From the NCBI GenBank assembly GCA_018398765.1, contig JAHBMJ010000009.1, positions 1 to 59,799 on the forward strand: a DNA stretch of 59,799 nt. Reading direction: 5' to 3'. The notes below the pieces were generated by a model. That model worked only from the letters and a program-made list of their open reading frames with translations. It was not told the DNA's origin and did no database searches. Each line of letters begins with the position of its first letter. The first letter of the stretch is position 1. Shown in pieces: positions 23,105 through 59,799 of this stretch. Both the position numbers and the translations under genes were made by a program. Origin of the DNA: Chromera velia. Taxonomy: Eukaryota.

Positions 23105-23188
23105 TTGGACGGACAGCAGAGGGATGAGAGAATTGAAGTGAAATATCCGGATGTTTGCTAGGCGTGAACTTTAGTTAGTTTAGCTCTT

Positions 23189-24512: not shown

Positions 24513-24558
<46 letters not shown>

Positions 24559-24856
24559 TCTATATTTTTTCTTCTTTTCCCTTCTTTTCTTTAAGAACAT
24601 AGTAGACAACAGACAGACAGACAGACAGACAGATAGTAGACAGAGACGGTTATTAACCATGCAAAGACGCACAGGAACGGCCCCGAAAAGTCTTTGAATA
24701 TGGTCTAAAAAAGAGTTAAATTACGGTAACTTGACTCCTCCAACAGGCTAAAAGCCGTTGGTAACCAGTAAAAAGTTACGTAATTCTGGTAACCCAACTT
24801 TTTTATAAATTTAAAGTCTCTCAGTAACTCTTAAGGATTCTTAAGGTCCAAGTGTA
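23189..24856. mobile_element. Non-autonomous TIR DNA transposon (middle element) with 8-bp TSD
   Basis: TIR TACACTTGGACYTTAAGA at both ends; perfect TSD TAGCTCTT at 23181-23188 and 24857-24864. Confidence 0.9.
23467..24207. mobile_element. hAT-like MITE (inner element), 741 bp, 8-bp TSD
   Basis: TIRs TAGGGCTGGGAAAAGGTTCA / TAGTGCTAAGAAAAGGTTCA; subterminal TGAACC repeats; perfect TSD ATACCATC at 23459-23466 and 24208-24215. Confidence 0.92.
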
Positions 24857-25819
24857 TAGCTCTTTAGTTAGTTCATATTTCCCCAAAAAAGTAAACTAAC
24901 TAACTAACTTATGAATTAAACCAGTTATAGAGGGTTTTTAGTTTAGTTAGTTTAGTTTAATATATTAAACTGTATTACTATAAAAGGTTTGATTACTTAT
25001 TGTCTGCTAGCATTGTCTGAGTCTAGGAGCGCCCGTCGAAGCCTCAGCCTAGGGTCGATCTTCTTTGTATGGGAGGCTTTGAGTCACTTTTGATCTAAAT
25101 AGCAGCACCGGGAGGACCTGGTGCTGCGCGTGGATCCGAGAGCGAGAGGCACAGGCTTTTGCACTAGCCTTGATCTTGTTGGGGTTACATGTCATTTATT
25201 GTTATCAACGACACTAGCAAGGACACTAACAATGATATTAAGCATCCTAATACTGGGAGGGAAGAGGGGTGTGGGGTGCAAAGTTGTAAACGCTCTTTAA
25301 TTTGCAGCAGCTCAAATTTTAGGGTTAAACTAGGTCAAAATTGTTTAGTTAGTTTAGTTAGTTAGTTAGTTCTCCACGGGGTCATAAACTAAACTAACTA
25401 ACTACTAACTAAAGTCCATGCCTAGGATGTTTAAGTTTAAATTTAAATAAGAAAAGTTGTAATAATTGTTCAATAAATTTTGAATAAGAATTCTGATGAA
25501 TTATTGTGCTATGCATTTTACTAGCTATCCCTAATCCTATTGAGTCTTCACGCGCAACTCTAAGTCCTCTTGGTGCTGCTCATCATCTGATAAAGTGACT
25601 TAACCCACCAGCTATCGTGTCCTATTCTTTAATACACTCCTAATAAACAATCTATTTAGACTAGTATTTAGATTGAAAGACTATAACATAATGAAACTAG
25701 TAATGAAAGTGACCCAGAGCCTCCTATGTACGTAGAGAAGACGCCTTCGATGAGCGCTCTTTGACTAGGTTAGGTTATTAGGACTCAAACTAACTCAGAC
25801 AATGAACCTGAGTGATCAA

Positions 25820-25987
25820 ACCGTTTCTAGAACCTTTTACGGTTTCATACATCAAACTAAACTAACTAAACTAAAGACAAGCAAAGACCACGTATAACTA
25901 GTTTTTATCACAGTTTAGTTAGTTAGTTTAGTTTTCTGCAGAAATATAAACTAACAAAAGAACTAAACTAACTAAAGTCTACACCTA
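25820..25987 (-). mobile_element. Inverted second copy of the left end of the 23159 family
   Basis: Reverse complement reads TAGGTGTAGACTTTAGTTAGTTTAGTTCTTTTGTTAGTTTATATTTC.., colinear with 23159-23188 plus 24865-24990. Confidence 0.75.
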
Positions 25988-26910
25988 CGTAACGACTGGT
26001 TTAGTGCTTAGGTGAAGAGCTTGGTGAAGTGTTCTTGTATATGTATTTCGCCTTCCAGCAATCGGTTGATTATGGAGGGTATACGTTTAGAAACCTGTTC
26101 ACGTAGTGGTTAGCAGAGTAACTTAATTAAACATTTGTAGACTTATTATCTGACTTAACTCAATAATCCTCATTATTACTCATTATAAGACTAATGTGAG
26201 CCGATTGTAGAACATGTAGTAATAAGTAGTAATAAGTAGACTTAGATAGACTAAGTTTAACTAAATAAAACAGTACCAAGCAGTCTTTAGTTGTAGGTGA
26301 TAGTTCAAAATATAAATTTAACATAATTTAACAATTACATTACTTTTTCTGTGAAATTCCATGATATCATGCATGACCTTCCGTTTCAGTTTGCTTTGGT
26401 ACACTTCGGTCTAGAAGTGAAAGACTATGAAAGACGTATCAGAGCGGCAGAGAAGTTCAGATGGGGTGGGTGGGGGGGGGGGACAAAGAGAGTTGGAGGG
26501 CGGTGGAATGCGGCGGAGCTTGATTTCGGGGGGGCAAGGCATTCGTAGGGTGCATGGTCCTGGCGGACTGAGGCGGGCAGGGCCCCCCCTGCTTTGGGGG
26601 GGGCCGGGACGCCGGGGGTGATCATGCATTGAAATTTGGAATGCCCTGAGAATCAATTACAAGTCCATAAAATGCTGAAGATCGTTGTCACTCTGTGAAT
26701 TGATGATGCATACCGAACTCTCAATCATCTTTGGTCTGAGCAAAATTGGTCAGGATTGAGGGAAAGTGCTCTGCATTCTGTCGACAGGTTCTTCAATCTG
26801 GTTGAGACGGAGCCATCTCGTCCGACCTGGTTTTTGACACTGGATTCCACCGCTGTTTCAGTCGTCCGAACCTGCAGCTGTTCTCCCTCTTTGCCTTGTT
26901 CCTTTAAAGG

Positions 26911-29900
26911 ATGACAGCGAAGGAAGCGGATATTTTGAGTGTTCTGGTTCAGACCGGAATTTTGGGATTGCGCGGATTCTGGAAAATCTCCGCCGTCTCC
27001 AAGAAGCTTCTCTCTCTGAGAGACGATGCAACTGCTTTAGGTTTTGGCAGTGTCTGTTCAGGCTTCTCTTCTGTCACTGAGAGGCAGGAGGTATGGAGGC
27101 TGATTGACGATTGTCTCTCACGCGATGATGAGAAAGCTCTGCAGCAGCTATTTGCCCTTGCTGGGGTTTCTGGGCGTTACCCTTTTCTGCTGCGACGACT
27201 CGTAGAGAAGGGCCCCGACTCGGAAAAGTGCCGAAAATATTTGATGAAGAGGGGGGTGACTCCGTGCCTCACTGAGATTTCGTATGCGCAGCGAACCTTG
27301 GGTGGGACCAAGTTGACGAAAAAACTCGTAGACGAAATGGTCAGCCATCGTATTTTGCAAACCGACGCCTGGTCAGTATTTCCGTCCCGGGAGGACGATT
27401 TTGTCGTCTTCGACCCTGTTTCCGTTCACTTTCTTGAGAATGACCGATTTGACTTGGCTGAGTCCCTGCTTGATGCGGGCTCACGTATGGATGTTTGTGC
27501 ATGGGAGTGGGAGAGATTTCCCCGCGTTCCCGATGTGGGGGTAACGCCCCTTCAATGCTTAGTACAGCGCCTCGTGAGACTTGATTCTAAGGAGCATGCG
27601 TTGCGTCAGAAGGGGTTAGCTCTCCTTGACCGAGTTGCGAGAGCATCCAAGGCAGCCGGATGTTTGGATTGGAAGTTCGTCCATGACGATCGACGGGTGG
27701 CCGTCATGCGTGAGGGCACGGCTCTCGGTTTTGCGTGTCTCCGTCGAGATGCACAGATTGTGAGAGTGTTAGGGGGGGTGACTGAGAGAATTGATCAGGA
27801 GGGTCTTCCCTTCTTGATTCTTACGGGCGACGATGATCATTATGACCCTGAAAGACTCAGTCCAGAGAAAGTTGACAGTCGTTGTGCAGACACGCTTGAG
27901 GAACTTGCAAATATACGGGGGGTGAATCTGAATGCCGTCAACAGAGACGGACACACGCCCCTCTCTCTTGCCTGTTCTCTGGCGCTAGAGAAGAGTGCAG
28001 CAGTGCTTCTAAAGAGAGGCGCCCTGCCGAAAAGAGTGAAGGGACGGAAGAGAATGAGCCTGTCACCCCTGTATGAAGCCTTGAAAACCCGATCAGAGAC
28101 CATCTGCTCTCTGCTACTTCAGTGGAAGGCAGACCCAAATGAAGTGGTGGTGGAAGGGGCAGGGGCCTGCACACTCCTGCAAAAGACACTGCTGAAGGCC
28201 TTTACCTGCCGGGAGTCGGACCGAAAAATAACCGCAGCTCTTGCAAAGCTACTGATCGAGAACGGTGCACGAGCATGTGTGCTTTCTTCTCCCCTCCTTC
28301 CGACAACAGAAAAGGGTCAGACAGGCACTCCCCCTCTGATTGAGTTCTCAACGCTGTTGATGGCGTGTCAGACAGAGGACGCCGATTTCGTGCGTCTCCT
28401 CGTCACCAAAGGGGGGGGGGATCCGAATGCAAAGGCAAAGACCAGGGAGATGGATGCCGCAGAATGCCCCGTGTTTTTTGTTCTCTGGTATTTTCGGCAT
28501 TCGGACTCGGTGATCATGTCTCTTTTGAACACTCTAGCAGAATTTGGAGCAGATCTGAAAGTTGACAGGGGTGATGGGCACAGTCTCTTGTCTCTCGCCT
28601 GCCACCATCAGTGCGGCTCTGCAGTACTGGAATTCCTTCTTGAAAAAGGGGTGCAAGTGGGAGGGCTGAGGCGAGAGGGGGGTGCGGGACCCGTCCCTCT
28701 GGTCGAGGCGGCTGCATCGCTTTGCCCCGAGAACGTTCGCGTCCTTCTGAAATGGGGTACAGAGGTGAATCATCCAGGGTTGGTGGAGGATTGGGAGGTT
28801 CAACGTCCCCCCGGAACGGTCAGGACCCTTAGGAGGGTCAGGCGTAGAACTGTCATGTTTCCGCTGCAGGCAGCTGTACAGGTACAGAAGCAAGATCGTA
28901 TGCAGGAAATGTTCGCTATTGTAAAGATGTTGATTGACAATGGAGCCAAATGTCGTGCCTGCCCGTCTCCATCAATAGATGCGTCAGAACCTCCCCTTTC
29001 CGTGCTGCCGCCTCTTGAGAGCAGCGTCTCTCCGTTGTGGAAGGCGTGTGAGCTGCGAGATGCATGCCTGATACGTTTGCTTTGTGAAAAGGGGGGGGGG
29101 CTGCCCGAGGGGGGAAAGGAGGTCGGTGCCGCAGTGTCGGTTCTGGTGTCTGATAGAGATTTCCAGAGTCAGAAGGACGTGCACTGCCAGGAGGGGGCAA
29201 TCTTGGAACATTGGCGCTTGGCTGAGTCGCTTTTGCAGGTAGGTGAGTGTGCGTGTGTGTGTGTGTGTGTGCGTGCGTGCGCGCGCGCGCGCGAGTGAGT
29301 GAGTGAGTGAGTGAGTGAGTGAGAGAGAGAGAGTGAGTGTGTGTGTGTGTGCTTGTGTGTGTGTGTGTGTGTGTGCGTACGTGCGTGCGTGCGTGCGTGC
29401 GCTCGAGCGAGTGAGTAAGTGAGTGAGTGAGTGTGTGAGTCTGTGTGTGTGTGTTTGCTAGGTATGTTTGTGTGTTCGCGCGCGTGCGTGTCTCTGGGTG
29501 TGCGTGTGTTTTAGTGCGCTTATGTACACGTGTGTGTACGCGTATGTGTGTGCGGTCACGTCTGCATGTGCGCGTGTTTGTCCGGGGGAAGGGGGGGAGC
29601 GCCAGACAGAAGAGGGGAGGAAGAGAGAAGGAGAATGTGTTGGTTGTTTACTCAGGTTTCTCTTCTCTGCTCGTTCAGTTTTTTCAAGGACTTCCAAGGC
29701 ATATCTGGCGGCAATGCCCTCCCGGGCGTATTGTCTTTTTACAATGATTTTGCAGAATGGTTGAACTCCAACAGTCTGTACTGCAAGGCTCCAAACATGC
29801 AGGGAAACTACCTGTTGCTCCTTGTCGTTTTTACCACTGGGTGTTTCTTCATATCGATCATTTGCTGATTGTTTCTATCTACACTCTCATTCACTGTTTT

Positions 29901-30457
29901 CCTCACGGACCGATGATTTTTTTTTGCAGCAACACGGCGAAGTTGACCTTTCCTTACCTGCCTCGGACATTCCAGGAATGGTCCCGGGTTGCGGGTCTGG
30001 TTCCTGGTTCTTCGACCTGATCAGTCTCGAAGAGGCGAGGGGCCCCTCTCTGCTGAAGGTCATTCGATCTTCCCCTTTGAAGGAACTGGACAGGATAGTG
30101 CAGGTGGCGACAGAGGGCTGGAATTCGGAAACCCACGTCTCGTCTCTGGGCATGGCAATCAGGAGTAAGTGGGAAGAGGGGGTGACTGCACTACTAGAGA
30201 GGGGGGTAAATCCGAACCTGGACCCGTTTGTTTTGTCGGAAAGCCCCCTTTTCGCGGCTTTCGATAGTGAACAATGGGATAATGCGAGATCCCTCCTCAA
30301 AAAAGGAGCGGGGCTGTTTTCTAGATGCGAGAGCGAGGCCAAAGAGTTAGAGGCAAAAAGGTGTCAATTGCCCCCCGACCTCCGATCTTTCCGACTGACT
30401 TCTTGTGCCACGACAGACGGGGTACTCAAAATTACTTTTGATAAAGACGTTGTTTGA
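26911..30457 (+). CDS. Ankyrin-repeat protein, 2 exons (about 26911-29238 and 29930-30457)
   Basis: 795-aa ORF with repeated ankyrin motifs (NAVNRDGHTPLSLAC..LLKRGA, SPLYEAL..LLLQWKADPN, GHSLLSLAC..FLLEKG); LQ|GTAGGT donor, TTGCAG|CAACAC acceptor; exon 2 has LLERGVNPN..SPLFAAF..LLKKGA. Confidence 0.88.
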
Positions 30458-30479
30458 TTCACTACCTTTGATCAACTGA

Positions 30480-30480
30480 N

Positions 30481-30515
<35 letters not shown>

Positions 30516-31544
30516 GTGCGTGCGCGCGTTTGTGTGCGTGTCGCGCGCGTGCGTGTCTCTGGGTGTGCGTGTGTTTTAGTGCGCTTATGTACACGTGTGT
30601 GTACGCGTATGTGTGTGCGGTCACGTCTGCATGTGCGCGTGTTTGTCCGGGGGAAGGGGGGGAGCGCCAGACAGAAGAGGGGAGGAAGAGAGAAGGAGAA
30701 TGTGTTGGTTGTTTACTCAGGTTTCTCTTCTCTGCTCGTTCAGTTTTTTCAAGGACTTCCAAGGCATATCTGGCGGCAATGCCCTCCCGGGCGTATTGTC
30801 TTTTTACAATGATTTTGCAGAATGGTTGAACTCCAACAGTCTGTACTGCAAGGCTCCAAACATGCAGGGAAACTACCTGTTGCTCCTTGTCGTTTTTACC
30901 ACTGGGTGTTTCTTCATATCGATCATTTGCTGATTGTTTCTATCTACACTCTCATTCACTGTTTTCCTCACGGACCGATGATTTTTTTTTGCAGCAACAC
31001 GGCGAAGTTGACCTTTCCTTACCTGCCTCGGACATTCCAGGAATGGTCCCGGGTTGCGGGTCTGGTTCCTGGTTCTTCGACCTGATCAGTCTCGAAGAGG
31101 CGAGGGGCCCCTCTCTGCTGAAGGTCATTCGATCTTCCCCTTTGAAGGAACTGGACAGGATAGTGCAGGTGGCGACAGAGGGCTGGAATTCGGAAACCCA
31201 CGTCTCGTCTCTGGGCATGGCAATCAGGAGTAAGTGGGAAGAGGGGGTGACTGCACTACTAGAGAGGGGGGTAAATCCGAACCTGGACCCGTTTGTTTTG
31301 TCGGAAAGCCCCCTTTTCGCGGCTTTCGATAGTGAACAATGGGATAATGCGAGATCCCTCCTCAAAAAAGGAGCGGGGCTGTTTTCTAGATGCGAGAGCG
31401 AGGCCAAAGAGTTAGAGGCAAAAAGGTGTCAATTGCCCCCCGACCTCCGATCTTTCCGACTGACTTCTTGTGCCACGACAGACGGGGTACTCAAAATTAC
31501 TTTTGATAAAGACGTTGTTTGATTCACTACCTTTGATCAACTGA
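30480..31544 (+). other. Apparently identical copy (offset 1065) of the ankyrin intron end and last exon; probable assembly artefact
   Basis: ORFs 29822..30457 and 30887..31522 are identical; copies are joined at a single N (30480) beside a (TG)n microsatellite. Confidence 0.75.
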
Positions 31545-31825
31545 CTATAATATATATTCAATTGAATGTCATGTACCCTATATGAAATCGAGACAAATTA
31601 GTATAAGTACTACAAGAAATGTTCTAATTTTGGTACTTAGTACACATTTTCTTTAAAAAAGTTTTACATATTTTCTTAGACTAGCAAACCTTTAAGATCT
31701 AGATGTACCAGTAAATGAATGAATAAACCTAACATTTAAACCAAACTAATTTTGATACACTGGAACTATAGTGTATCACAATAAGAATTTGTAGTCTGTA
31801 AATTGTAGAACCTTTTGTATCACAA

Positions 31826-33793
31826 TGTTGTGTGCCGCCTTAGTGTGTTCTACACAGATACCGAGGCCAATACGGCATGTCCCAACCCGGCATTCCGGGG
31901 GCTACGGCAACTATTCTATCCGCAGCACTAGCTGCAACATCCTATTAGATATTTCTGGCTCAGCAGCGCATTCTTTAACACTGCTTTGGCAGCTTTGTCC
32001 AGTTGATCAATGGAATCAGACCTAGCCTCCTGACTGACAGTCTCACGTGACCGCGGTCTATGAATTTGTTGTATTATGCCTAGACTGTCTGCGTATGGAG
32101 TCTAGCTGGTATACAATATGGCAGCGAGCCTGGTTCCGGGTCATATTTGAGAACCGCAGCTGCCACTGTTAATTGCAACCCGTCTTCTCTTTGAGAAATT
32201 AGTTTTGCAGGGTTCACGCTTCTGGCAGCAAGCTCGCAAACGTTTTCCGAAGTAGACAGATAGACACAGTGGCGCGTATCCCTCAGAGTCTTCTCTTCTG
32301 GGTTTAATGAATTTATCCTAGAATTTACCCCCCTGGCTTCAAAAATTGCAACGTACTGAATTTTGAAAGACTCATCTCCTTTGTGAGTGTATCTTTCTCG
32401 CTCCGCTAGCCACTGCCCTAGCCACTGCCTTCTTGAAATGTCTTCTCTGTTTGGAGAAGTATCCACTATGGTGATGGCACTCAAGCAGGTATGTGATGGA
32501 GCCCTGGAAACAATTTTAAAAGCTTCATGGTGCTGAGGACTGCCACATCGCTCTGACTATTGCCGCTAAGACTTACTTCTCTTTGGTTTCTCAAACTTGT
32601 CTCGTCTTTGAGGCACACAGGCCTTAGAAACGCCGTAGAAAACGTGGTGTGGGCGTAAAAAAGAAGAAGACTTTTTGTGCACCGACCGTCAGCTAGTGCT
32701 TGCATTGCTTCTGCTGCAGCTTGTTTATCAACTCCAACACCGGAGCTACCTCTCGGACCCAGGTGCAGCCGCTTCTGAACCTTCTATTCCCGACAGGTCA
32801 TCTGGCACACATGCAACTCATGCAACCTTGCCCCTTTCCTTCTACAATCATGATGCACCAAAGTCATTCCTCTACTTTTGCCTTCTCCCCCTCGCTCTGC
32901 TGAAGTTCCCAAGCAATTGAGCAGCTCTCTGCTTTCCTTTTTCAGAACTATTCCCACAACTCTTCTGGAAATAAAGCTGGAAAACATACTAAGCGAGGAG
33001 TAACCCCCTCCCCCTCCCATTCCTACTGAATCGACCATAATCTCAGAGTCTACAAATACCCATGTGGAGGTTAATTGTGGTTTCTTCTCAGCACTCTAGC
33101 TTTCTTGTTCCACCCGATGCCGCTATTACAACTCCTTCCAAGACCCCCAATCCCCCCCCCAAACCCAAACTCATTCGAATGGTGAAAGTGGGATCCAAGT
33201 TCATCCCTGACCCCCATGAAGTGGATGAATTTCACTGCCGTCTCCCTTGCAGTGAGGAAAAGCAGGATACAGCGGCGACGGTCTTTCAGATAGACAGATC
33301 GACCCGCCTAATGCTTCCTCATATATGGATTAACCCAACTACCCTGCCTCCTCCTGATGAACTAACGTCTGCTGCCATGACAGCTGCAAGAACCGCTTCC
33401 GCCAAACGCTTGCCCGATTCTGCGTGGCACCTTCCTTGGTGGGAGCAGTACTGGCTATGATTTTGTACTGCCTGTTCAGAAGAAAGGAAAGGGATGCATG
33501 TTGTATGTCACCTCAGTGTGTCCTACACAGATACCGAGGCTAATCTGGTATGTCCCAACCCGGCAGTCCGGAGGCCATGGTAACTATTCCATCCGCAGCA
33601 TCCCATTGGATATTTCTGGCTCAGCAGCACATTCTCTAACACTGCTTTGGCAGCTTTGTCCGGTTGATCGATGGAATCAGACCTAACCTCTTAACTGACA
33701 GTCTCACGTGACCGTGATCCATACATTTAATTGTTGGATTATGCCTAGACGTGCTTAGACTGCCTGCGTACGGAGTCTAGCTGGTACACAATA
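31826..33793 (+). mobile_element. Non-autonomous LTR retroelement, about 2 kb
   Basis: Direct repeats about 31826-32118 and 33499-33793 (TGTTG...CAATA); TGGCAGCGAG PBS-like at 32119; purine tract GAAGAAAGGAAAGGG before the 3' LTR; TSD not resolved. Confidence 0.82.
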
Positions 33794-34271
33794 AGAATGA
33801 TTTGTGACATAATTTCGTGTCACATAAATGTCACACAATAATTGTAATTTTAAGAACTTTTGACTGATAATCCCAGCTCATTAAAATTCAATAAAAACTT
33901 TAAAAATTATTCAAGCTCTTGTTTAAACTTAATTCATTCATAAAATTTTTACTTAACTTATTGTAGGTTATTAATTCAATTAAAACGAAAGAAAAAATTT
34001 CTAGAAAAAATCCTATTCATTGTATCATTTCCTAGATCTTAGGTTTTCTAGCCTATTACTACTACTAGTAGATCGTTTGAACCGTAACTTCAACCGTTTT
34101 ATACTAAGGCTAGTATCAAGGCTACTTTAATAGACTACAGATGTTAGATATAAGAATCACCAATCAATTCATTCTAAAATAATTCAGAATATTTTCTACA
34201 TAGACAAACATAGTGACACACTGACATATATACACACACAAAGAAAGACAGAGAGACAGACAGATAGAGAG

Positions 34272-36849
34272 TGAAGTATATAGTAGAATATAACTAGCGT
34301 GAATAACATGAGATGAATCGGCCATTATAGAGTCCAAAGACTGTCAAGCAAGAGTCTTAGAGCTTAATAGATCGAACACAAAGTTAAGTTTTAACGTTGC
34401 GATCTGCCACTGAAGGGAATTGGAGTGAATAATTGATCCGTCGGATAATTTGCTTTCGCCGGGGCCCCTGGACCGCGCACTGCCAGTACCTGTACGTACC
34501 ACAGTGTGCATGCCGGGGCAACCACTTAGTGCGGTCGAACACAACATGCATTCCTTTTCTTTCTTTCTCCTCTCCAGGGACCTCTATCGACTTTCTGGGG
34601 TCTTGTCCTCCCTCTCTTCCATTTTGGCTTGTCACGTTCCTTTCTTCCCCTCCCTTTTCTGCCCGACACTTCAAGCTAACACCTCCTTAATTACAGGAGG
34701 ATTTTTTATTAAGACATGGAGAAGGGATGAAATTCTTTTCATGCTGACACCTCAGGTGACTGCCAAAGGATTTCTGTGTCAGTACATAACAAAAGAGACA
34801 ATGCATGTAGGTCAGGGTAGGGAAGAAAACACAATGACAAAGGGGGAAGACAGATTCCTAGCTGCACTTGTTTAAGGCTTGTAAAGGTGCGCAACCGCTG
34901 TTGCTGTGGGTGTGGACTCTGAGCCAGAGTTGGGGTCGGATACAGATCATTCAGAGGAAACGGAGGAAAAAGTGTTATACCTCCTCTTCGATGCTTTTGA
35001 TCGCTTTGCTGGGGGAGGCGTACAGCTAAAGTAGAGCTTAAGCTTCTCTTGCAAGCTCTTCCGGCAGTGTCTGGTCTTGTGTCCCTTCTGTAAGCACGTC
35101 TAGCGAAAAAACTAGAAAAGACCTCGAGAAGTGGGGTGGGTGGGGTTTTTGCAGCGATGGTAAAGGGGGCCTTCAGGGAGAGGCACAGAGTTCTGGCCGG
35201 CTGCTGTTGCAGCCGGTTGTAGCAGGTTGGTTCAATTAATTGGGTTCATTGGAGGGTGACTGGACAGAGTGGTTGGGAGGAGACGGAGACAGAGAAAGGT
35301 GTTGATGATCCATTAATGGGGAAATGTTCCGTCCAAGCTCATTCGTATGGCGGAGGTAGGTTATTTTGATGCCTCCTTTTCCCTTCCACCGGAAAAAGGT
35401 TGCTATAGTCGCGACAGGTCCCTGCAGTTTGAAAAGGATCGCGCGGAGAAGGAAAAAACAACCTGAGATTAAAAAGCCTCCTTGGTAGGAAAAGGGACGA
35501 AGGGCGGCGACTTCTTCGAGTTGGTGGTAGTAGTTTTTCAGATCTCTCTTGTCTTCTTCTCCTGTTCAAACAAAAACCATCTCCTCCTTATGATACAGTC
35601 GCTCAACACCGTTGGACTAAGTCTTGAGTTCAACAGTTTGGATGAGCTCTGTTGGGTGAAGTTTGGGGGCAGTCAGGGGTAAGACTTAGTTCATGAGCGC
35701 TCCCAGGTTGGTATCAAAGATGACAGCGGGGTCACTGTCAAAGAAGGTGCGGAGTTCGTCTTCAATAGTAGGGAGGCTGCGGCGGGAGGCAGAGTCAAGG
35801 GTGAGAAGGAAGTTGTGGATTTTGATATACTTTTCTGCACCAGAAACAAACGCATTGGCAAGTTATATAGGATTGGCGCCCTCCATATTGTTCTCTGCAT
35901 GACGTTAGAATGACTCAAAAATGTCTTCAAGGGAAAGAGTGTCATTTTTGAATTGAACAGAGCATTTCCACTCCGGGAAGGTGGTAGGGGTTTTCGGTTT
36001 GGAGAGCAGTGCTGAACGGAGCGTAGCATTTTCCATCTCCAGTTCAAGCATGCGCTGGTCTTTGAGGGAAGACTTCAGACGAACATTCTCTGTCACAGTG
36101 CACGCAAGGCAGTAAGCTCAGCCTCAGGAGATGAGGGCTGCTGAGCTAGCTGCTGAGACTGTTGAGACGAAGGTAGGGGTTTCAGGAGCTGGTACCTGGA
36201 TGAAGCCACTCTGGAAATTGTGTGAGGGGGAAAACTGGGGCAAGAGATCGTCTGAATGTAGAGGGGGCATCGCCAGTTGGGGTGTGGGTGGGAAGGGGAA
36301 CAATTTTCGTTATTTTGGTTTCCTCCACCTGAAGGTGGTTTTCGTCTTCCCACTGATCTTGCCATTCGTACGCCGGTGGAGCCTCCTGATTAAACATGCT
36401 GCTGCTTGCAAAATATGGAGTATGGACAGAGTCCGCAGCGGGCGTGCACAGGAAAAAACGACCTGACAGGGTTGTAGAAAAATCAAGTTGATTTAGAGTG
36501 AAGGTTGCAATTAATATGAGAAAGATATAAAATCAACCATCTCCTCAAGACTCCCTGGTTTCAAAGTAGAACCCGCTCTGGTACCATGAAGTGTACAACA
36601 GAATATGGTTAGCGTGAATAACATGAGATGAATCGGCCGTTATAGAGTCTAAAGACTGTTAAGCAAGAGTCTTAGAGCTCAATAGAACACAAACGTTACG
36701 ATCTGCCACTGAAAGGAATTGGAGTGAATTATACTGTGAACAATTGATCCGTCGGACAATTTGCTTTCGCCGGGGCTCCTGAACCGCACGGTGCCTGTAC
36801 GTACTACAGTCTGCATGCCGGGGCAACCACTCAGTGCGGCGGAACACAA

Positions 36850-36851
<2 letters not shown>
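34272..36851 (-). mobile_element. gag-only LTR retroelement, about 2.6 kb, degenerate
   Basis: LTRs 34272-34546 and 36587-36851; PBS TGGTACCAGAGC (minus strand 36575-36586, tRNA-iMet type); PPT at about 34551-34575; stop-riddled gag with zinc-knuckle remnant R*TCLQKGHKTRHC (about 35064-35105); no pol motifs seen. Confidence 0.88.
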
Positions 36852-43800: not shown

Positions 43801-45702
43801 TCAAGGGACGTGGCAAGCGGGGTTGCGTCAAAGCACACGAACACACATAGTCCGACTTCAGGAAAGATAGAGAAGAGCCGAGCCGACGCTAGGCGTACTA
43901 GCATCGTGATAGGACCCCACACACGCCACCCCGTCCCCCTCCCATCCCACCCAACGGGACCCCGCCTCCCCTCAGGGCCCGCCTCCCCCCCGAGACTCGC
44001 AGGCCCGTCGGCTGTCCCCCCTGCCCCCACACTCAACGCATCGATGCCTGAGGGAGAAAGAGACACGCATCCTTCGATCAGTGCCTCAGAACAGGGACAT
44101 GCCCAGAGAGACGGAGAAAGAAAGGCACTCACCTCTTCCCATCTGCACAGAAGCACTGTCCCTCTTCCACCACACCCTCACACAGTTTCGCATCAGAGCT
44201 CTGTCGTAGGGTCCCAGAAGTCTCCGACAAAGGCCGTGGAGGCTTCTGTCGTTGCCTCCTCTTCTGCCCTCCCGTCTCGACAAAAGGGGCCTGTCAGTGA
44301 GTCAGGCAATCCCCCTCCACAAAAGAGCCGGCCAGGCTCTAGAGAGAGAACCCAATCTGTCAGGGGAGGGGGAAGAAAGGCCCCCCTGACGGTCACGCAG
44401 CCTCGACCCTCTGTGACTCAGCAGAGACTAGGTCGGGGAGCGCGTGCTCCTCTGTCAGGGAAAGCAGAGAGACCCCCTGCGGCCTCTACCATACAGGCAG
44501 GCCGGAGGACGGACACACGTGCACCAACAGCAGAGCCGTCTAGAGTGCACGGGCAAGGGGGACAGAGTCAGTCGGTCCGAGAGACGGCGTCTCACCAGAA
44601 GGGGGAGGGAGGCAGCACTGCTTCTCAAAAGTTGGAGGGCTCTCAGACAGGGCGGAGGGGGGACCCTGCACACGTCGTCCTGAGCAGGCAGCAAGCGGGG
44701 GCCTCCCACGGTCCCTCCACACGCCCTGCTGAGAGGGCAGCAGAAGTTATTAATCGCCGTGTCGTGCATGGGAGCCTTGAAGGGGCCGAGGGGAGTCCAG
44801 CCAATGCGCACGCGCCTGCAGAGACCGTGGATGAGCTTGAACGGCTGCGCGAGAGGAATCGGGTGCTGTTTGAAATTCTCCAAGGCCTTCTGGGTGAGGG
44901 AAACCTGCCCAACAGATGGATGAGTGCCTTGAAAGGCCGCCGGTGTGTCGCCTGCACCAAACGAGACGGAAATCGTAGCCGAACAGACTGTTCTACCAGA
45001 CGTTCAAGATCAATGGCCCCGGAAAGAAACGCAGTAAGCCGAACGTCCGACTGCGAAGAATCACAGACAAAAGGGGACCCTAGAAGGGTCATGGCCCACA
45101 GTAGTCAAGAAGTGAGTGTCCAGGCAGCAGATCAGAGCCTGACCGAGCCAAACTCTCGTGGTCCTGCTGGAGTAGCACGAAACGCCTCTCGTCGATCGAC
45201 CTCCATGCCGTCACTTCGTAACCAAAGAGCACCCAGGCTCTCGTCTCGTCTCCTTCCCTCAAGTTCCACCCCCCGCACGGAAATCGCGAAAGACACAAGC
45301 GCGGTTGACAGCGCGACTAGACCCTCAAAGTCGGGTCTCCACTCCGGTCTACAGAGGGGGGGCAACGGTCAGGGGGGGGCTCCACAGCAGCAGGGGACCT
45401 TGCAGCGGGGACCCACTCCCGTGCCGTCACGAAGGTGTGACCCTCCGGCACAGTCCCACCCACTGGTCCCACGTCGCCTTCCGAGATCACCCGTCAGGTG
45501 GGAAGCCAGAAAAGCCCAACGGCAGATGCGTATGCAAGAGCCAAATACAACGAGAACCATTGCAGCAGCAGACGCTAGAGCAGACGTGAAACAGAGCGGG
45601 ATAACGCTATCGCGTTCCCGTCCTGTGCCGTTTTCCTTGCAGGAAGGAAGTTTATTTCGATGCCCCGTTTGTGACCGTGCAGACAATTTAGAATTAGTGT
45701 AA
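40515..45702 (+). CDS. Hypothetical Ser/Pro/Arg-rich low-complexity protein with short coiled coils
   Basis: Exon 1 MATAASRLALLREELKSLKEEM; probable exons about 41325-41680 and 42039-42241; terminal exon 42673-45702 containing the 1004-aa ORF, ending CPVCDRADNLELV. Confidence 0.7.
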
Positions 45703-47583
45703 ATGACTTAGAAGCATGATCTAGGCGTCGAAAAAAAAAAATTCAACGATCGGAGGAGATTTTTTTTTTTTGCTTTCTAAACCGAGTTCCAAGGTAAACC
45801 AAAAGTAACACTTAATAATAGTTGTTGAACTGTACAATATATAGGATAAGATAGGATAGGATAATAAGTATTAAGCAAAGATATATACGTCTAGGCCTCG
45901 GGAGCTTCAAGTTAGCGCTCCAACTAAGGTGATACATACTCTAAGTAACGTAGCTAGTAACTAATTAACTAACTAACATGCATAAACCCTATACTTATGC
46001 ATCCCTGATATGAGGTGCAACACTAGGTGCAACAGTCTAGCAATATGACATATTGAACATGCAGTTCTTCAAGTTTTTTATAGTTATTTCATTGTTGAAA
46101 CAGCCTTCTAGTCACCAGCCTCCTAGGTTACTTTAATTAGGAGTTAATTGTAGAATAATTCTACATTAGTAATTTATGTATCATGATGATCCAATCATTA
46201 TTGATAATAATCTTCTAATATTAATTCTTTTAGACATCATTAGATGATAACTTAACTTGAATTTTTTGATAACTAATTAAGACTAAAACTATAAGACAGG
46301 AGATATATATAAGCATCATAAAAACTTTTAATCGAATAAAACTCAGATTACTCTACATGCATAAATTAGAATAAACTTCCAAAAGTTGAAGCAATCAGTC
46401 TTTAAACGCCTAATTCAAAGAAAAAAAAATGGGTCTGAGTCACTTACGTAAACTAGAATCAAGGATACCAGATTTCTATTTCTATAAACTTTTTGAAGTA
46501 AGTGGTACTCTTGAAACAGTAAGTACGCACTCACAGGTTCAAACAGATTGACACATATTGGCACACGCATTTGCGTAGAGACCTCAGACTGATAGGCATG
46601 TATAGCCACATCTTGTGTGACTGTATTGAGTTGTCAGAGGGATGGCAGGCAGCAGTCTTCTGGGTGGTACATTGCTTTGTCGCTTGATCGATCCTCGCTT
46701 CTTCCATCTCTTTGCCGACTGGTCCCGTCGTCCCCTCTTCCGCCTCTTCGACGCGTCTCCGGCCAGGCTTGGTTTATGGGTCTCATACAGGAATGAATGC
46801 CGATGTAGTTCAACAAGGAGAGGACGGAACCGAGGAGATGCAGCCAGACACACACAGAGGGGCGGGGGGGCGGAAATGTGTCATTCAACGTTTGGAATGT
46901 GTCATTCAACGTTTTCTAAAAAAGAGACGTTCATTTGCATGCAGAATACCACCTGCATTCATGCAGTGTCCTCCCATTCATCCTCTCTGGCTGTCGTCCT
47001 TTGGCGTGCAGATACGGAGAGGGACCAATTCAAATCAGTGTTTTTAAGGCTGAGACCTGTCCTGTCAGTGACACTCAAAAATGAAATGATATTGGCCCNN
47101 NNNNNNNNNNNNNNNNNNGTTGGATTCTCAGTTTTAGCCGTGAAAATCTCTTAGCATCCAAGGCGTTAAACCAGCCAGAGAAGAGCTCCCCCCCCCCTTC
47201 ATCCTTGCTTATCCGTGCTTACCATTTGAGAGAGCAAGTACGCAGTTCCTTCGCGTAGAGCACATTGTCGGCCGGCTTGCGATCTCCCCTGCGGCTCCAG
47301 TTCGCTGTTCCCACCCTTCATTCTCAATCTCTCTCTGCATCAACAATTCTTTGTGCTGCCTGCCACCCATGACTTTTGTCATCATCGGTCTCTGTCTTTG
47401 CGTTTGTGCCAGCTAGCTGCCATCTAGCTGCTTGAATGAAGTGTACACACAACCTTGAGCCAGAACCTTGTCTTCTGCCTGCCCCCTCTCTCCTCGGAAG
47501 CGGCCGCGGCCACCGCATCTTCTGGGGTCTCGCAGAGTTGTGGTGGCTCGATGCCAGTGAGGAAGTTCCGTACATGCAATCAG

Positions 47584-50854: not shown

Positions 50855-51300
50855 GTTTGAGAGGGCACGCGGACTCGGAGAAGGCGGGGTTGCAGTTTGA
50901 GAGCGCGGGCGGACTTGGGGAAGGCGGGGTTGCAGTTTGACAGGGCGGGCGGACTCGGGGAAGGCGTGGTTGCAGTTTGACAGCGCGGGCGGACTCGGGG
51001 AAGGCGGGGTTGCAGTTTGAGAGCGCGGGCGGACTCGGCGAAGGCTGGGTTGCAGTTTGACAGCGCGGGCGGACTCGGGGAAGGCGTGGTTGCAGTTTGA
51101 GGGGGGCTGGCGGACTTGGGGAAGGCGTGATTGTAGTCTGAGAGGGCTGGCGGACTCGGGGAAGGCGTGGTTGCAGTTTGAGGGGGGTGGTGGACTTGGG
51201 GAAGGTGTGGTTGTAGTCTTAGAGGGCTGGCGGACTCGGGGAAGGCGTGGTTGCAGTTTGAGGGGGGCTGGCGGACTCGGAGAAGGCGTGGTTTCAGTAA
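50855..51300. repeat. 40-41 bp GC-rich minisatellite, about 11 copies
   Basis: Unit TTGCAGTTTGACAGCGCGGGCGGACTCGGGGAAGGCGTGG, period 40 from 50890, drifting to a 41-bp variant. Confidence 0.92.
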
Positions 51301-54300: not shown

Positions 54301-54632
54301 TTAGATTTGCATGGACTGATTCAACCCCTTAGCTAAGTATTTAAAAACCACAGAACAATTATGATTGGTCGATGCCTAGGCAGCCTAGTCCCTAGCCTAG
54401 TCCATAGTGTTTAGCAGTGGAGTCTAGAGTAAAGTATGAGTTAGGTAGGTTTTACTAGGATCGAAAACGACATAACATAGTCGACACCACTAACAAATCC
54501 TAGAAAGCCCTAGAGATAAGAAAATCACTAAAAACTAAACTAAAAGCTAAATTAAGACTCTTAAAATTAATGAGCTATTGTCAAAGCTAAGAGCTTACAT
54601 AAGTTTTTAGCTTACAGTCACCCTAGAGAGTC

Positions 54633-54779
54633 ACCTCGAAGATTTGAGATTAAAGGTTCAGATTTGAAGTAGATTTGATAGGATTTGATAGGTCGTATCA
54701 TGCTAAAGTTTCTCAGGCCTAAGATTTGATTTGAGATTAAGCTCTACTTTAAATCAAATCAAATCAAATCTGGTCACTA
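54633..54779. mobile_element. Right end of a TIR DNA transposon with ATTTG subterminal repeats
   Basis: Ends AAATCAAATCAAATCTGGTCACTA; about 150-bp reverse-complement similarity to 59433-59590. Confidence 0.65.
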
Positions 54780-54944
54780 TTATCAGTTCATCTAGTTTGG
54801 TAACTTTGGTATACTTTTATCAAAGATTGACACTGTTGGTCTAGGTAAAATTAGGCAAACTATGAAATGTCAGCATTGTATTGAAACATAAATGTCGTTG
54901 TCGATCAGTGCCGTTTATACGTTTAGTGTCAATAACGGCATTTA

Positions 54945-57900
54945 TTGCCCACCACCGTTATTAATTTTCTCCATGCAGAAAATGACCTGTTTTTTCTGCC
55001 TCTGGAGATAGACAGGACTTCCCCACCCAAGTCCCCACCCATTTCGAATTCCCATTCCGTGTCTCCAGAGGCCGTTGCAGTGGGTCCTGCATTGCCTGTG
55101 TCCCCTCCGTTGTCTCCTTCTCCTGTTGTCCTTGCAAATGGGCACCTCCCCGCTCGTTTGAAGGCAGCTAAACAGAGGAAGCACCAACGAGGAAATCGCA
55201 CCTAGTCTCATGTTGTGCAAGCCCATTCAGAAGAATCTGCTGTCTCTCCCCCCGTTTCTTCATTTTATGACAGTTCTCCAGCCTCCGCTCAGCAGCCCCA
55301 ATCTTCTTCCTCACAGGACCTCCCTCCCATCTCAATAAAAGCCACTGTTGATGAACTCATCCGCGCACATCACGAATGGTTAGGACATGCCGGTATCGAG
55401 GCCACTTGGCGTTCCCTCCGTGCGTCCCTTTCTGACCTCCTTCCCGGTCGTAGCAGCATTTCCCGCCATGCCGTTCAACGCGCCCTGCTCCCATACATCC
55501 GAGGGGGTACGTGTGCGCACATGAAGCCGAGGCATGGGGGGGACGGCACCCGGGGGTCTTTGAAGGTCGATCGCCCCAGGTAGCGAGTGTGTTGTGACCT
55601 GGTGATGGGGTTGAAGGGGGGGTACTCGTTACACATCCAAGATCAGCATGATGATTGGCTCGCCCAAGAGGTAGTCGAAACAAAAGACTCCGCCACAATC
55701 TGTGCTACCTATGATTGTTGGTCCCGCAGTCTGGAGGGTGACCTCACTCCTGAGGTGATGACCGATCACGGACCCGAATTTCAAGGCGACTGGTATGAGT
55801 GGTTGGCTGAGCGGGAAGCTACAAACCCTTTAACCCCTGTGGGCAGCCACCACTCTCTCGGCAAAACAGAGCGTTCCTATCATGAGTGGCTCATGATCTT
55901 ATGGGGCATTTTGAGAGATCGTGGTCTTGACGATTCGCATTGGAAGGAGTTTGCTTCTCTTGCGACAGCGACATACAATCGTCAGCCTCGAAGGTCCTCT
56001 CACAAGAGCCCCTTTGAGCGACGCTGGGGTGCTTAGCCACCCAGTCCTCCCATCGACGCCCTGCATGACCTTCTTTAGACCTTCCATCGTCCCTCTGCTG
56101 AGATGTCTCCCTTTCTCATTGGCTCGTCTGTTTTGTATCATCACCCCGATCACCCCCGCGCCAAACTTGCCCCCCTGTACACTCCTGCGACTATGCTGCA
56201 GCGCATTAGCGAGCATGTGTTCCGCTTACGTCTCCCTTTAGGACGTCCCATCCTGTTACATCGCAGGTGCATCCGTCCCAATGATAGCCCCAACCCCGAC
56301 CCCGTCTATGTCGTTCCATTGCCGTTGGACTCCCCTCTTGAGCGTGCGGATACATCCGTTGGGTCTTCTCAGTAGCAGGAGCAGCAGCAGTAGCAGTCTT
56401 CTGACTCGCCGTGTTCGTCTGCCCCGCATTCTTCCCCCAAGTTTGATATCACCGATTTTGGCAAAGATGAGCTCATTTTTTGGCGGGATGAGAATACAGG
56501 CCGCTGCTTCCTTAGTAGCATCCGTGCTGTCGACCCTGAGGGTGAGGGACGGGTTGAGGTTCAGGCATGGGGGTTAAATGGCAAGCAGTCTCTTGCCAGC
56601 CGACGTATGCAGCCTGCATGGTACCCTTTCAGGGGCCACCCCAAACTTTTGTACGGTGCGCAGAAACCTTCTGGGTATGGGCCCGAGCTTTGTTTTCTGG
56701 TGCCAGAAGAGGTGGTGGAGAGAAACATTGTCCTCTCTGCCGAGGGAACCCTCCCCTCCCACCTTTGTAACACTTACCGAAGTGTTCTTCTGGCCAGCCC
56801 AGAAACTGTGTTCCCCACCGATCGGTTGTCTTCTAATTACCTTGCCTCCTCAGCAGCTGCGGCTGCCATCTTCTCTCCTCCCCCCCACCCAACTCCCGTT
56901 GCAGGTGCCTCTGTTGTGTACTTGTGGAACGAGGATGATGAGGTGGGGCCTGGTGCGTTCTAAGCTGCGACAACTCATATTCCCCTCCCCTGCCGGGGAC
57001 TCATAGTAGAACAACTCGATGGGAGAGCCCAGTCCCGTGCCGCCGAGTTGCAGTTCCTTGCCGATAACGATGCGTACAAGCGAGTCCCAATCGCCGAAGT
57101 AAACGCCGAGCACCGCCGCTCTGCAGTGCCCACGCATTTTGTTGACACCGAGAAGCGTGTTGAGGAAGGTGCTTGGACTTACAAGTCTAGAGTCGTTGCT
57201 GACGGCACTCCTTTCTTCGACCGCCATGAAGGAGTCACCACGTCTTGCGCTACCGTCTCCTAGTCTGCTATACATATTGCCCTTGCCATGGCATTTGCCC
57301 ATTCCGATTTTAACCCCCGTGAAATCGTTGTAGCCGATGTGAAAACAGCATATCTCACGGCTCTCCATTCCGATTCCCTTTACGTCCATCCCCCAAAAGA
57401 TCACCCTGACCATGGGCAGTTCCTGTGGCTCCTCAACCGAGCGCTTTACGGACTTCGCGATTCTGGTAATCTGTGGGACCGCTCTCGCAATAAGACGCTC
57501 GCAGCAGCAGGGTGGGTGCCTTCCTCTGTTTGAGGAATATGGTGGAAATAGACGGGTAAGCCTGAGGCCCCCACTTCACGCCTCCTTAGGATTCTCCCCA
57601 CTTTTGTTGACGACTTTGCCATCCTACCCATTGGTCGATCTGCAGTTCAGCTTGCGCACGAGATCGCAACCAAAGGAGGTTACCAGATGAAGATCACCAA
57701 ACCCAAGAACGGAATCCTCCGCTGGGCAGGGGTGGATTTCAATGTGTCACGAGACTCTGTGCACATCCACCAAACCAAGTACCTCCTGTCTCTCCCCCTC
57801 CCTGAAGGTATGGGAGAGTCTGAAGATTTTTCCGCATCCACTCCCTCTTCCGTTCCCATTCCTTCTCCCGATTTGTTCCCCCTCTCCCCATCGTCTTGCG

Positions 57901-59039
57901 AGCTTCCTTTTGAACCGCCTCGTCTCTTGACAGCCCAAGAAGGCAAAGCCTTTCGTGAACGGCTGGGGTGTCTTTCGTGGGTTGCACGAGATACTCGCCC
58001 TGACTTGTCCTAAGGGTACAATCAACTGAGCCGTCATTCGTCCGCTCCCACTCAAGCCGACGCTGCTTACCTCCTTTCGCTTCTCCGTTATGCCCGTCGC
58101 ACCGTAACCTCCCGTATCCTCCGTATCTCCCGCTCTGATGTCCCTCCCATATCGTCTCCCCTCTCCACTAAGTCATAGAGCGATGCCGCGTTGGGGTCTG
58201 CAAGAAATGCGCATCCACAGTCTGGGTGGCTCTTCACTTTAAAGTCTGCCATCCTGCACTGGCGGGCCTTTTCTCAGAAGCAAGTCGCCAGGTCTTCCAC
58301 CCGAGCAGAGCTCTATGCTGCTCATGACCTCGTTGATTTCTTAGAGTGCCTCTTGCCTGTCCTGCGGTGCGTCTGGAAAGCGGGAGTCACAGCGGAAGTG
58401 GGGGTAGACTTAAATGACTTGCTGAAGCTGGTTTCTAGTGAGATGCCCCGTCTGACCGAGCGTGCCCTCCAGTCCGTCATCGAGTCACTTCAGCTCGGCA
58501 TCATCAAAAAATCGCCCTGCACACTTGTTTTGCATACCTTTTCCCTCCGTGATGCGTTAGATGAAGCTTCCATCCGCCTTTCGTTCGTCCCTTCTCATTC
58601 TAATATGGCTGACCCTTTCACAAAGCCCATGTCAATTGAGCTTTTACTCCCTTATTTCACTTCCCTCTCCCCTCATCCTGACAGTGTGACATCGTCCCCA
58701 TCAGATTTTCCGATTGTCCTGTAAAAAAAAAAAAAAAGGAAGTCATGTAATCAGCCACTTATAGAGAGGCGGCGGCGGGCGTGCAGTGGTCGGCCCGACT
58801 CGGTCGGTCTCGAGCCGCGGCGTTGCTTATCGGAGCAGCACGGCTGGAGGCATTACGGAGAGTATGCATGTATTGATCCATGTTGTGAAGTTGATTCGCG
58901 CAATACTTCGAGTGATTCAATAAAGCAACTCTCAATAGATGAGAGCAGAAGCCGGACAGAAGTCGTGTAGTATTATTCCTGTATAAAGAACCGTAAGATT
59001 GACTGGACTGTCCTTGACTGGACTCTCTAGTTCATTACA
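54945..59039 (+). mobile_element. 5'-truncated LTR retrotransposon: pseudogenised pol (integrase - extra domain - Copia-type RT - RNase H) plus 3' LTR
   Basis: One frame 54945-58724. Integrase: HHEWLGHAG, VCCD, TDHGPEF, GKTER, YN..SPFE. RT (RVT_2 type): YKSRVVADG, DVKTAYL, RALYGLRDSGNLW, FVDD, TRPDLS. RNase H (Ty1 type): SDA, SSTRAELYA, NMADPFTK. Purine tract 58723-58742; LTR TGTAAT(58746)...ATTACA(59039) with AATAAA at about 58919. Confidence 0.93.
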
Positions 59040-59432
59040 CCCATAGTATTTACAAACTCTATGTTTTACTCAAAACATATATCATAATAAACTAGAATGC
59101 TGTAATCTCTAACCTAATTCTAATTCACCCTATAGTCTAGATGATGATAAATAAATAATCATATAATTTTAAATTTACACTTGTCAAGTATAAGTTGTGA
59201 ATTTAAAGAATAAACATCAACTTTGAAATTATATAATTTTTTTATTTAAACAAGAAAGTTGAGCTAGCAACATCATCAACATATTTCTCCCGATTTCGCT
59301 TTGCATATATTAATATATAATTGTTTGGGCAATTTTTGTTCCTGCCAATGATTTAATTACCGTTAAATTTGTTTAATGAATGTTTTATATGATCTAAGGT
59401 ATGGTCTAAGGTCCTAGGTAGTCTTCTGAAGT

Positions 59433-59590
59433 TAGTGACCATGTTTGATTTGATTTGATTTGATTTGATTTGAGGTAGGGCTTAAGCTCAAATCAAATAT
59501 CCAGTCAGGGAGGATCTAGTGTTTAAAGATCTATCAAATACGATCAAATATTTGATTAATATGACTTTCAACCTCAAATATGAAGGTCCC
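59433..59590. mobile_element. Left end of a TIR DNA transposon of the same family as 54633-54779
   Basis: Begins TAGTGACCATGTTTGATTTGATTTG. Confidence 0.65.
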
Positions 59591-59799
59591 GAAAAAACTT
59601 TTGCAAGTACCGATCCGTCACGCATGCTGATTCAAATAAAAAAACCTAAATCTTGATAGTTTACTCTCAAGAAAAAAACGTTTTGAGCTGCACTGAAATT
59701 GACGTTTCACCCCCTTTTACTTCATGCAGAGGTAAACCGATCAGCTGAACGTTTTCCCAAACAGCTGTGTTGACTTTTCTGGTGCTGGAACATCTTTTA

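Follow-up and report, generated by a model that had tools for sequence, protein, structure and literature searches.

Two-strand C>T erosion at CpA and CpG sites in LTR retrotransposons of the alveolate alga Chromera velia

Overview

A stretch of 59,799 nucleotides from Chromera velia (assembly GCA_018398765.1, contig JAHBMJ010000009.1, positions 1 to 59,799; hereafter the window) contains a degenerate Ty1/copia retrotransposon at 54948..59039 on the plus strand, as well as two shorter long terminal repeat (LTR) elements. We found that LTR retrotransposons of C. velia undergo a C>T process that acts in place and on both strands, in which CpA and CpG sites are changed equally often, and both more often than CpC and CpT sites, which are again alike. 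A host duplicate (one gene pair) and the changes fixed between active copia subfamilies show no C>T bias. The process appears to be gradual, judging from the rise of the C>T load with other substitutions and from the lack of strand heterogeneity among copies and of strand runs within the window copy. As its cause, we lean towards slow decay of transposon DNA methylated at cytosines in CG and CA contexts, rather than a fungal-style repeat-induced point mutation (RIP).

The copia element and its family

The element was identified from Pfam matches and family homology as a 5'-truncated Ty1/copia pol (integrase, reverse transcriptase, and RNase H) of subfamily A, located at 54948..58724 on the plus strand. 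The RVT_2 domain was matched at residues 722-947 (E 2.6e-13), downstream of the integrase, which places the element in the Ty1/copia group. The integrase-reverse transcriptase-RNase H order, the purine tract, and the TG...CA ends of the LTR are likewise shared with Ty1/copia elements. The rve match was weak (residues 210-293, E 0.004, below the cut-off), and so was that to Integrase_H2C2. Homology to the copia family begins at 54948, slightly inside the start at 54945 given by the initial annotation, and the element continues past pol to the end of the 3' LTR at 59039. Gag, protease, and the 5' LTR are missing. Because other copies continue upstream of 54948 into gag-protease coding sequence, a part present in sisters P0073 and P0083, the window copy is truncated at its 5' end; P0003 and P0073 support the truncation point. 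A purine-rich segment directly before the LTR (58723..58745, plus strand) is, from its position, a likely polypurine tract, and a likely 3' LTR of 294 bp follows (58746..59039, plus strand), whose TG...CA termini make up an inverted repeat of 6 bp. The window holds no second LTR of this copy.

The family is divergent, and its best full-length relative outside the set named Chromera, P0007, is 28% identical. The name Chromera velia CCMP2878 is attached to 5/11 and 49/54 of the copia matches and to 29/31 further cluster members, and also to the 13 best matches of a host ankyrin-repeat gene in the same window. These names, shared by the copia sisters and the ankyrin matches, exclude fungal contamination of the contig, which the initial annotation had raised as a caveat. 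Scans of metagenome contigs for family DNA gave 52 pattern matches with sister P0014, none of which was confirmed, and 4 confirmed of 564 with P0085, all distant (32-45%) and not used; a scan of viral contigs with P0021 confirmed 0 of 9. Run X6, a marine sediment metagenome, contains copia-family contigs, one of which spans 1912 bases with 97 differences from the window.

In-frame stop codons of the window copy

The pol frame comprises 1260 codons, terminates at TAA 58722, and is interrupted by 12 premature stops (55203..58178, plus strand), all at the positions reported initially: TAG at 55203, 55581, 56034, 56076, 56373, 56391, 57261, 57549, and 58176, TAA at 56961 and 58011, and TGA at 57531. 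The other five frames contain 25-71 stops each. Frameshifts had been described as lacking, and no insertion or deletion inside pol with a share of at least 25% was listed in the contigs of four public runs. Ancestral codons were assigned from the sister alignment, counting the sisters that cover each site, and two sites were read in DNA. Gln was found at nine stop sites (8/9, 5/5, 16/18, 14/14, 7/7, 7/7, 22/22, 32/32, and 17/19 sisters), Trp at 57549 (26/26) and 58176 (17/17), the latter as proposed from the RNase H motif, and Arg at 57531 (24/27). Given these residues, CpA>TpA on either strand accounts for 11 of the 12 stops, the same count as in the initial annotation, and CpG>TpG for the remaining one. 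The contigs of the four public runs read C at 56961 and 57531, the two stop sites among the 40 differences listed. The stops are private to the window copy, so the objection that they might be common to all copies does not apply.

That all 12 stops are C:G>T:A changes has a probability of 4e-7 under equal rates. C>T can create a stop only from CAA, CAG, CGA, or TGG. Since the genetic code thereby places 64% of the C>T routes to a stop at CpA, the observed 11 of 12 (P 0.037 against context-free C>T) says little in favour of a CpA preference, and context was measured from all changes. In a post hoc comparison, 9/47 Gln codons of the window copy were changed, against 23/296 of its remaining CpA sites (P 0.009), an excess that possibly reflects chance or the choice of this particular copy for annotation.

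Substitution spectrum of the window copy

The copia family consists of two subfamilies, A and B, with 41 majority differences in 1080 shared positions, and the window copy belongs to A. It was compared with the subfamily A majority over 1235 codons, and only unambiguous non-synonymous changes were scored; five changes with more than one route were left unscored, each having a C>T route. C:G>T:A accounted for 79 of 84 changes, 38 on the plus strand and 41 on the minus strand (P 0.31). Per possible change, 9.2% of CpA (34/369) and 8.5% of CpG sites (26/307) were altered, in comparison with 2-3% of CpC (10/443) and CpT sites (9/319), 2/1020 for A:T>G:C, and 3/5848 (0.05% per route) for transversions. 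CpA and CpG did not differ (P 0.79), and together they exceeded CpC/CpT (P 9e-8). CpA sites contributed 43% of the C>T changes (34/79), and no strand runs were detected in the window copy (z -0.33). By an ordinary clock the window copy would be young, and no frameshift is expected in it because ordinary substitutions are so rare.

The same direction was seen at the DNA level. The window had T/A where others had C/G at 170/267 differing places in runs X1 and X2, 129/187 in X6, and 144/212 in X5; these counts from the four public runs are unpolarised and include 850 bases of flank as well as subfamily differences. Among the differences listed, 39 lay inside pol, and 34 of these were of the C>T type (CpA 12, CpG 11, CpC 7, and CpT 4). 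The RIP indices, which the initial annotation had recommended as a check, were negative for the window copy (TpA/ApT 0.58 and (CpA+TpG)/(ApC+GpT) 1.30).

Spectrum across sister copies

From 97 family proteins, 10 were left out (self, window-encoded, or distant), 82 of the other 87 were aligned, and 19 with more than 10% divergence, one isoform, and two unassigned proteins were dropped, leaving 60 sisters (23 of subfamily A and 37 of subfamily B). In subfamily A, 3.7% of CpA, 3.7% of CpG, 1.3% of CpC, and 1.4% of CpT sites were changed, with 0.15% for A:T>G:C and 0.05% for transversions. The corresponding values in subfamily B were 5.4, 6.5, 2.0, 2.2, 0.26, and 0.10%. In the pooled sisters (CpG 5.2% vs CpA 4.7%), the rates were about 59 (CpA), 66 (CpG), and 22 (CpC/CpT) times the transversion rate per route. 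The CpA excess persisted when the context was fixed inside the codon (CpA 42/795, CpG 111/2419, and CpC 51/2766). The C>T process is therefore real and family-wide, and it is better supported than the 12 stops suggest. The tabulation by dinucleotide proposed initially, carried out here at the protein level and per subfamily, bore out the dominance of C>T and the raised CpA rate; the expected preference of CpA over CpG did not appear.

Two candidate contexts were rejected. Decay following plant-type CHG methylation (H, any base except G) was discarded on the trinucleotide rates in sisters (CAG 3.2, CAH 5.2, CTG 1.3, CTH 1.9, CCG 1.3, and CCH 1.7%), in which CAG was not hotter than CAH, nor CTG or CCG hotter than CTH or CCH. 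A cytidine deaminase of the 5'-TC type was discarded as neither CpA nor CpG sites showed a preference for a 5' T.

Across the 37 copies with at least 200 residues, those with more changes of other kinds also had a higher C>T load (rho 0.45, P 0.005), and neither strand (P 0.66) nor CpA share (P 0.27) was heterogeneous. A whole-family majority was rejected as the reference, since it mixes the two subfamilies and inflates other classes; the load correlation went from rho 0.04 with that reference to 0.45 per subfamily. Lightly changed copies exist, such as P0036 with 1 change in 240 residues and P0082 with 4 in 574. Together with P0027 (on a 5571-base record) and P0021, these near-unmutated subfamily A copies may be young, or members of an active lineage. 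The counts exclude P0032 and 18 further sisters that lie 12-32% away from the majority, which form either a third subfamily at greater distance or a set of copies with poor gene models.

LTR pairs of two further elements

The second LTR element (31826..33793, plus strand) has LTRs at 31826-32118 and 33499-33793, a TGG primer-site-like start, and a purine tract. The third (34272..36851, minus strand) has LTRs at 36587-36851 and 34272-34546, again with a primer-site-like start and a purine tract. The LTRs of the second element are 29 transitions and 4 transversions apart, and those of the third 21 transitions and 2 transversions, giving 50 transitions vs 6 transversions; T/A letters that look derived occur in each copy and on each strand. 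Paired LTRs are identical at insertion. Because these pairs now differ, the C>T process acts in place after insertion, and as a two-strand process it spans three LTR families. When a C>T direction was assumed, changes were found at 25/87 CpA, 11/54 CpG, and 14/124 CpC/CpT sites; CpA was above CpC/CpT (P 0.002), and this smaller set leans to CpA over CpG.

The block at 31560-36850 comprises two short paired-LTR elements in opposite orientation, of about 2.0 and 2.6 kb, which are possibly non-autonomous. One internal frame of this block was tested against Pfam and gave no match. The minus-strand element contains a 391-codon frame interrupted by 9 stops.

Host DNA and subfamily differences

As a control, we used the host ankyrin-repeat gene at 26911..29220 (plus strand), which is open over 770 codons and has a paralogue, P0098, that is 81% identical. 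Over 532 columns, 37 transition-type and 39 transversion-type changes separate the pair (kappa 2.3), with flat contexts (CA 8, CG 8, CC 10, and CT 11). The fixed differences between subfamilies A and B were similarly balanced (18:19 transitions:transversions). Pairs of the window copy with its sisters gave 512:35, from 12 pairs that share the window copy and are not independent. The host pair and the A-vs-B differences each deviate from the dead copies with P about 2e-9. In addition, a linked GC-rich tandem array with a 40-nt unit showed 7 C>T-type variants, 9 transversions, and 2 reverse changes, retaining its CpG and CpA sites without bias.

Base composition provided a second comparison. An equilibrium simulated under the measured rates had a GC content of 0.10 and a TpA observed/expected ratio (o/e) of 1.06. 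Four host stretches had 50-53% GC, TpA o/e of 0.39-0.54, and CpA/TpG o/e of 1.1-1.2, with a mild CpG depletion (o/e 0.67-0.81), and AT-rich islands of the window had 33-37% GC and TpA o/e of 0.92-0.95. The Chromera genome is described as 49% GC, with introns and intergenic DNA making up about 117 of 194 Mb (PMC4501334). Its transposons amount to 30 Mb, compared with 1.5 Mb in Vitrella, the other chromerid. Composition and the one host paralogue pair indirectly suggest that the C>T process may be restricted to transposon chromatin.

Possible causes of the C>T process

The C>T changes are two-stranded, post-insertion, and age-dependent, as the decay of 5-methylcytosine (5mC) would have it. Under the reading towards which we lean, silenced transposon DNA would carry methylated cytosines in both the CG and the CA context, and their deamination over many cell generations would give C>T on both strands, with CpC/CpT affected about a third as often as CpA/CpG. 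At least one of the five genes with a C5-methyltransferase domain that have been reported for Chromera may lay down the 5mC. Gln, Trp, and Arg nonsense changes are predicted to kill nearly every copy long before ordinary mutation does, and old repeats to drift into AT-rich, TpA-rich islands. A precedent is the methylome of Symbiodinium, likewise an alveolate, in which non-CG (CH) methylation is directed to silent transposons (PMC5890265). Differences are that CG methylation is genome-wide in Symbiodinium and that a CpA mutation signature is not among the results seen in the available part of that study (PMC5890265).

Several points weigh against methylation-linked decay. CH methylation in Symbiodinium is about 1% (PMC5890265), and equal rates at CpA and CpG would require unusually dense CA methylation. 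The five DNA_methylase genes listed for C. velia (PMC5890265) may include tRNA (DNMT2) or prokaryote-type enzymes. CA mutations in the fungus Zymoseptoria did not track the methylation level (PMC8016269), which favours an enzyme-driven step over passive deamination. In the LTR pairs, CpG was not significantly above CpC/CpT (11/54 vs 14/124, P 0.16). The C>T load was overdispersed among copies (chi2 103 on 36 df) and the other changes were not (42 on 36), so that episodic action is possible. Neither stops nor synonymous changes can show in the sister proteins, which are gene models and probably come from the window's own assembly, and the host control is one selected pair, unpolarised and at the protein level. 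Outside the transposons, 8/17 alternative letters in a 33-nt tandem array were C>T-type, so that this array is not clearly spared, and the sole listed difference in unique flank (54150) is a C>T at CpG.

An active RIP-like or Dim2-like mutator is the main rival, less likely but to be weighed in earnest. In this case, an enzyme of the DNMT4/RID type would recognise repeats and, over many weak rounds, convert C to T at CpA, in addition to the ordinary decay of methylated CpG. Such a mutator would agree with CpA being as mutable as CpG at some 59 times the transversion rate, with the changes in both copies of linked LTR pairs, and with the overdispersed load. Among ten fungi, a CpA signature accompanies a RID/Masc1 gene and a CpG-only signature accompanies Masc2 (PMC4352252), mitotic mutation at CpA is driven in Zymoseptoria by Dim2 (PMC8016269), and in Vitrella, the sister chromerid, a protein annotated as DNMT4 groups with that of diatoms (PMC10538959), although its clade stands apart from canonical DNMT4 in one of the two trees given there. 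Against it stand the open and ordinary host duplicate, the spared 40-nt array, the negative RIP indices, and a load that follows other substitutions, as well as the lightly changed copies and the growth of the family to dozens of copies.

RIP acts in bursts and leaves one-strand clusters in each copy. Neither the 37 copies nor the window copy showed one-strand bursts, although many weak rounds would mask them. The C:G>T:A dominance expected of RIP in repeated DNA was evident (79/84, and 50:6 in LTR pairs), whereas a strong excess of CpA over CpG was not (9.2 vs 8.5%; sisters 4.7 vs 5.2%). RIP would also act on any duplication; here the host pair was ordinary, the 40-nt array unbiased, and the 33-nt array not clearly spared, too few cases to weigh on this point. 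The Chromera pattern is not classed as RIP because the preference for CpA over CpG and the burst signature were both lacking. The initial annotation had read the stops as the hallmark of RID-dependent RIP, and this claim is not supported, given the equality of CpG and CpA, C>T at CpC/CpT sites about 8-fold above T>C, the load that follows other substitutions, and the absence of one-strand bursts; the host duplicate and the GC-rich array also lack the bias. Its broader proposal of a repeat-targeted C>T process in a chromerid holds insofar as the changes are two-stranded and post-insertion with CpA as a main target; a RIP-type defence does not follow, and the alternative it offered, heavy non-CG methylation, fits best.

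RIP in Neurospora and Leptosphaeria likewise produces C:G>T:A in repeats on both strands and CpA>TpA nonsense changes without frameshifts (PMC4352252, PMC9246332), but about 90% of the Leptosphaeria changes are at CpA, compared with 43% (34/79) in the window copy, and Chromera differs further in its RIP indices, spared host duplicate, and lack of bursts. The pattern more closely resembles the CpG-plus-CpA decay of transposons in Tuber melanosporum and Aspergillus niger/fumigatus, with the same C:G>T:A dominance and transition/transversion ratios far above 2 (PMC4352252). Those species are ascomycetes with RID/Masc1 (Tuber also with Dim2) in which CpA is the secondary target, whereas Chromera is an alveolate with CpA equal to CpG. 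The Dim2-dependent mitotic mutator of Zymoseptoria tritici is similar in its gradual, repeat-associated C>T at CpA, which needs no premeiotic burst, but its new mutations spare CG, which is equally affected in Chromera, and Dim2 is described as fungal-specific (PMC8016269).

It is improbable that C>T is favoured genome-wide at CpA and CpG sites and can be seen in dead transposons alone, either because selection and GC-biased gene conversion mask it elsewhere or because it is recent. The C>T at 54150 and the CpG depletion of host DNA are in line with such a bias. The host paralogues, however, gave a kappa of 2.3 and flat contexts, and the host stretches, at about 50% GC with TpA o/e near 0.4 and CpA/TpG o/e of 1.1-1.2, are far from the predicted 10% GC, as is the whole genome at 49% despite its large share of introns and intergenic DNA (PMC4501334).

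Editing or error during retrotransposition, by a cytidine deaminase on cDNA or by the reverse transcriptase, is largely refuted by the LTR pairs, which differ through changes in both copies. All affected sequences studied are retroelements, as this explanation would have it, but the strands are equal (38:41), no 5'-TC preference exists at CpA or CpG, and fixed differences between subfamilies follow an ordinary spectrum. A faulty assembly, damage to the library, or a variant genetic code reading TAA/TAG as Gln is very hard to credit. In favour of these, 9/12 stops align to Gln, and at the places listed the Logan contigs, which drop rare variants, hardly ever carry the alleles of the window. On the other side, single-copy-depth contigs in X1 and X2 are equally divergent, with 13-26 differences over 150-210 bases, the sister residues are of the CAA/CAG type and C is read there in DNA, and Woo et al. 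counted 245 of 26,112 genes with internal stops (PMC4501334). The TAR (TAA/TAG) = Gln code was rejected, as two TAG sites are Trp in sisters and long host frames in the window (770 and >1000 codons) are open.

Other features of the window

The copia fragment is bordered on the left by a high-copy AT-rich repeat (54508..54952), in which the summed contig depth, not a copy number, reaches 19,229 vs 33 in the neighbouring unique bin, and on the right by an AT-rich flank (59040..59700). These contain MITE-like (miniature inverted-repeat transposable element) inverted arms at 54642-54770 and 59452-59579 that match at 73-76% and enclose the fragment. A second degenerate, MITE-like pair of inverted arms lies at 24854-24997 and 25811-25968. 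The two inverted AT-rich pairs showed transitions:transversions of 13:16 and 19:19 at about 75% identity, without bias, and are too diverged to be read.

AT-rich islands at 8000-8770, 23170-26400, 31540-31800, 45700-46550, and 59040-59700 (28-41% GC per 500 bases, TpA o/e near 1) are sharp in a background of 50% GC, and several begin immediately downstream of the stop codon that closes a long frame. They look like what C>T decay is predicted to produce in the end but could alternatively be native 3' or intergenic sequence. Minisatellites with units of 40, 33, 46, and 42 nt were found at 50855-51298, 628-849, 21377-21588, and 1477-1600, respectively, the 33-nt one in an open frame. A 1.06-kb tandem duplication (29419-30479 and 30484-31544), identical outside a microsatellite and with N at the junction, is likely an assembly overlap. 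An exon of a ribosome-biogenesis gene was identified at 19641-20117 (Pfam Ribo_biogen_C, E 2e-11).

Significance for Chromera and its relatives

In the literature searched, with subscription journals and some supplements outside the search, we found no report of RIP, 5mC, or DNA methyltransferase-linked decay in Chromera, and the word methylation is absent from the available text of Woo 2015 (PMC4501334). Standard RIP indices miss the process described here, and nonsense codons alone overstate its CpA preference.

A CpA signature as strong as that of CpG has been tied in fungi to RID- or Dim2-type enzymes, and it is found here in an alveolate. Chromera is a culturable alga related to malaria parasites, stands among the photosynthetic organisms closest to the Apicomplexa, and serves as a reference point for the apicomplexan ancestor; the finding predicts that its non-CG methylation is dense or that it has a RIP-like mutator. 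The role of the RID-related DNMT4 of algae is given as unknown in the papers, and Chromera could supply a function. The doubtful case of an enzyme-driven, repeat-directed C>T mutator in Chromera, a RIP-like defence built on a DNMT4/RID-type methyltransferase outside fungi, would, if true, account for the burden of decayed transposons and for the AT-rich islands in the Chromera genome and would give the orphan algal DNMT4 a function.

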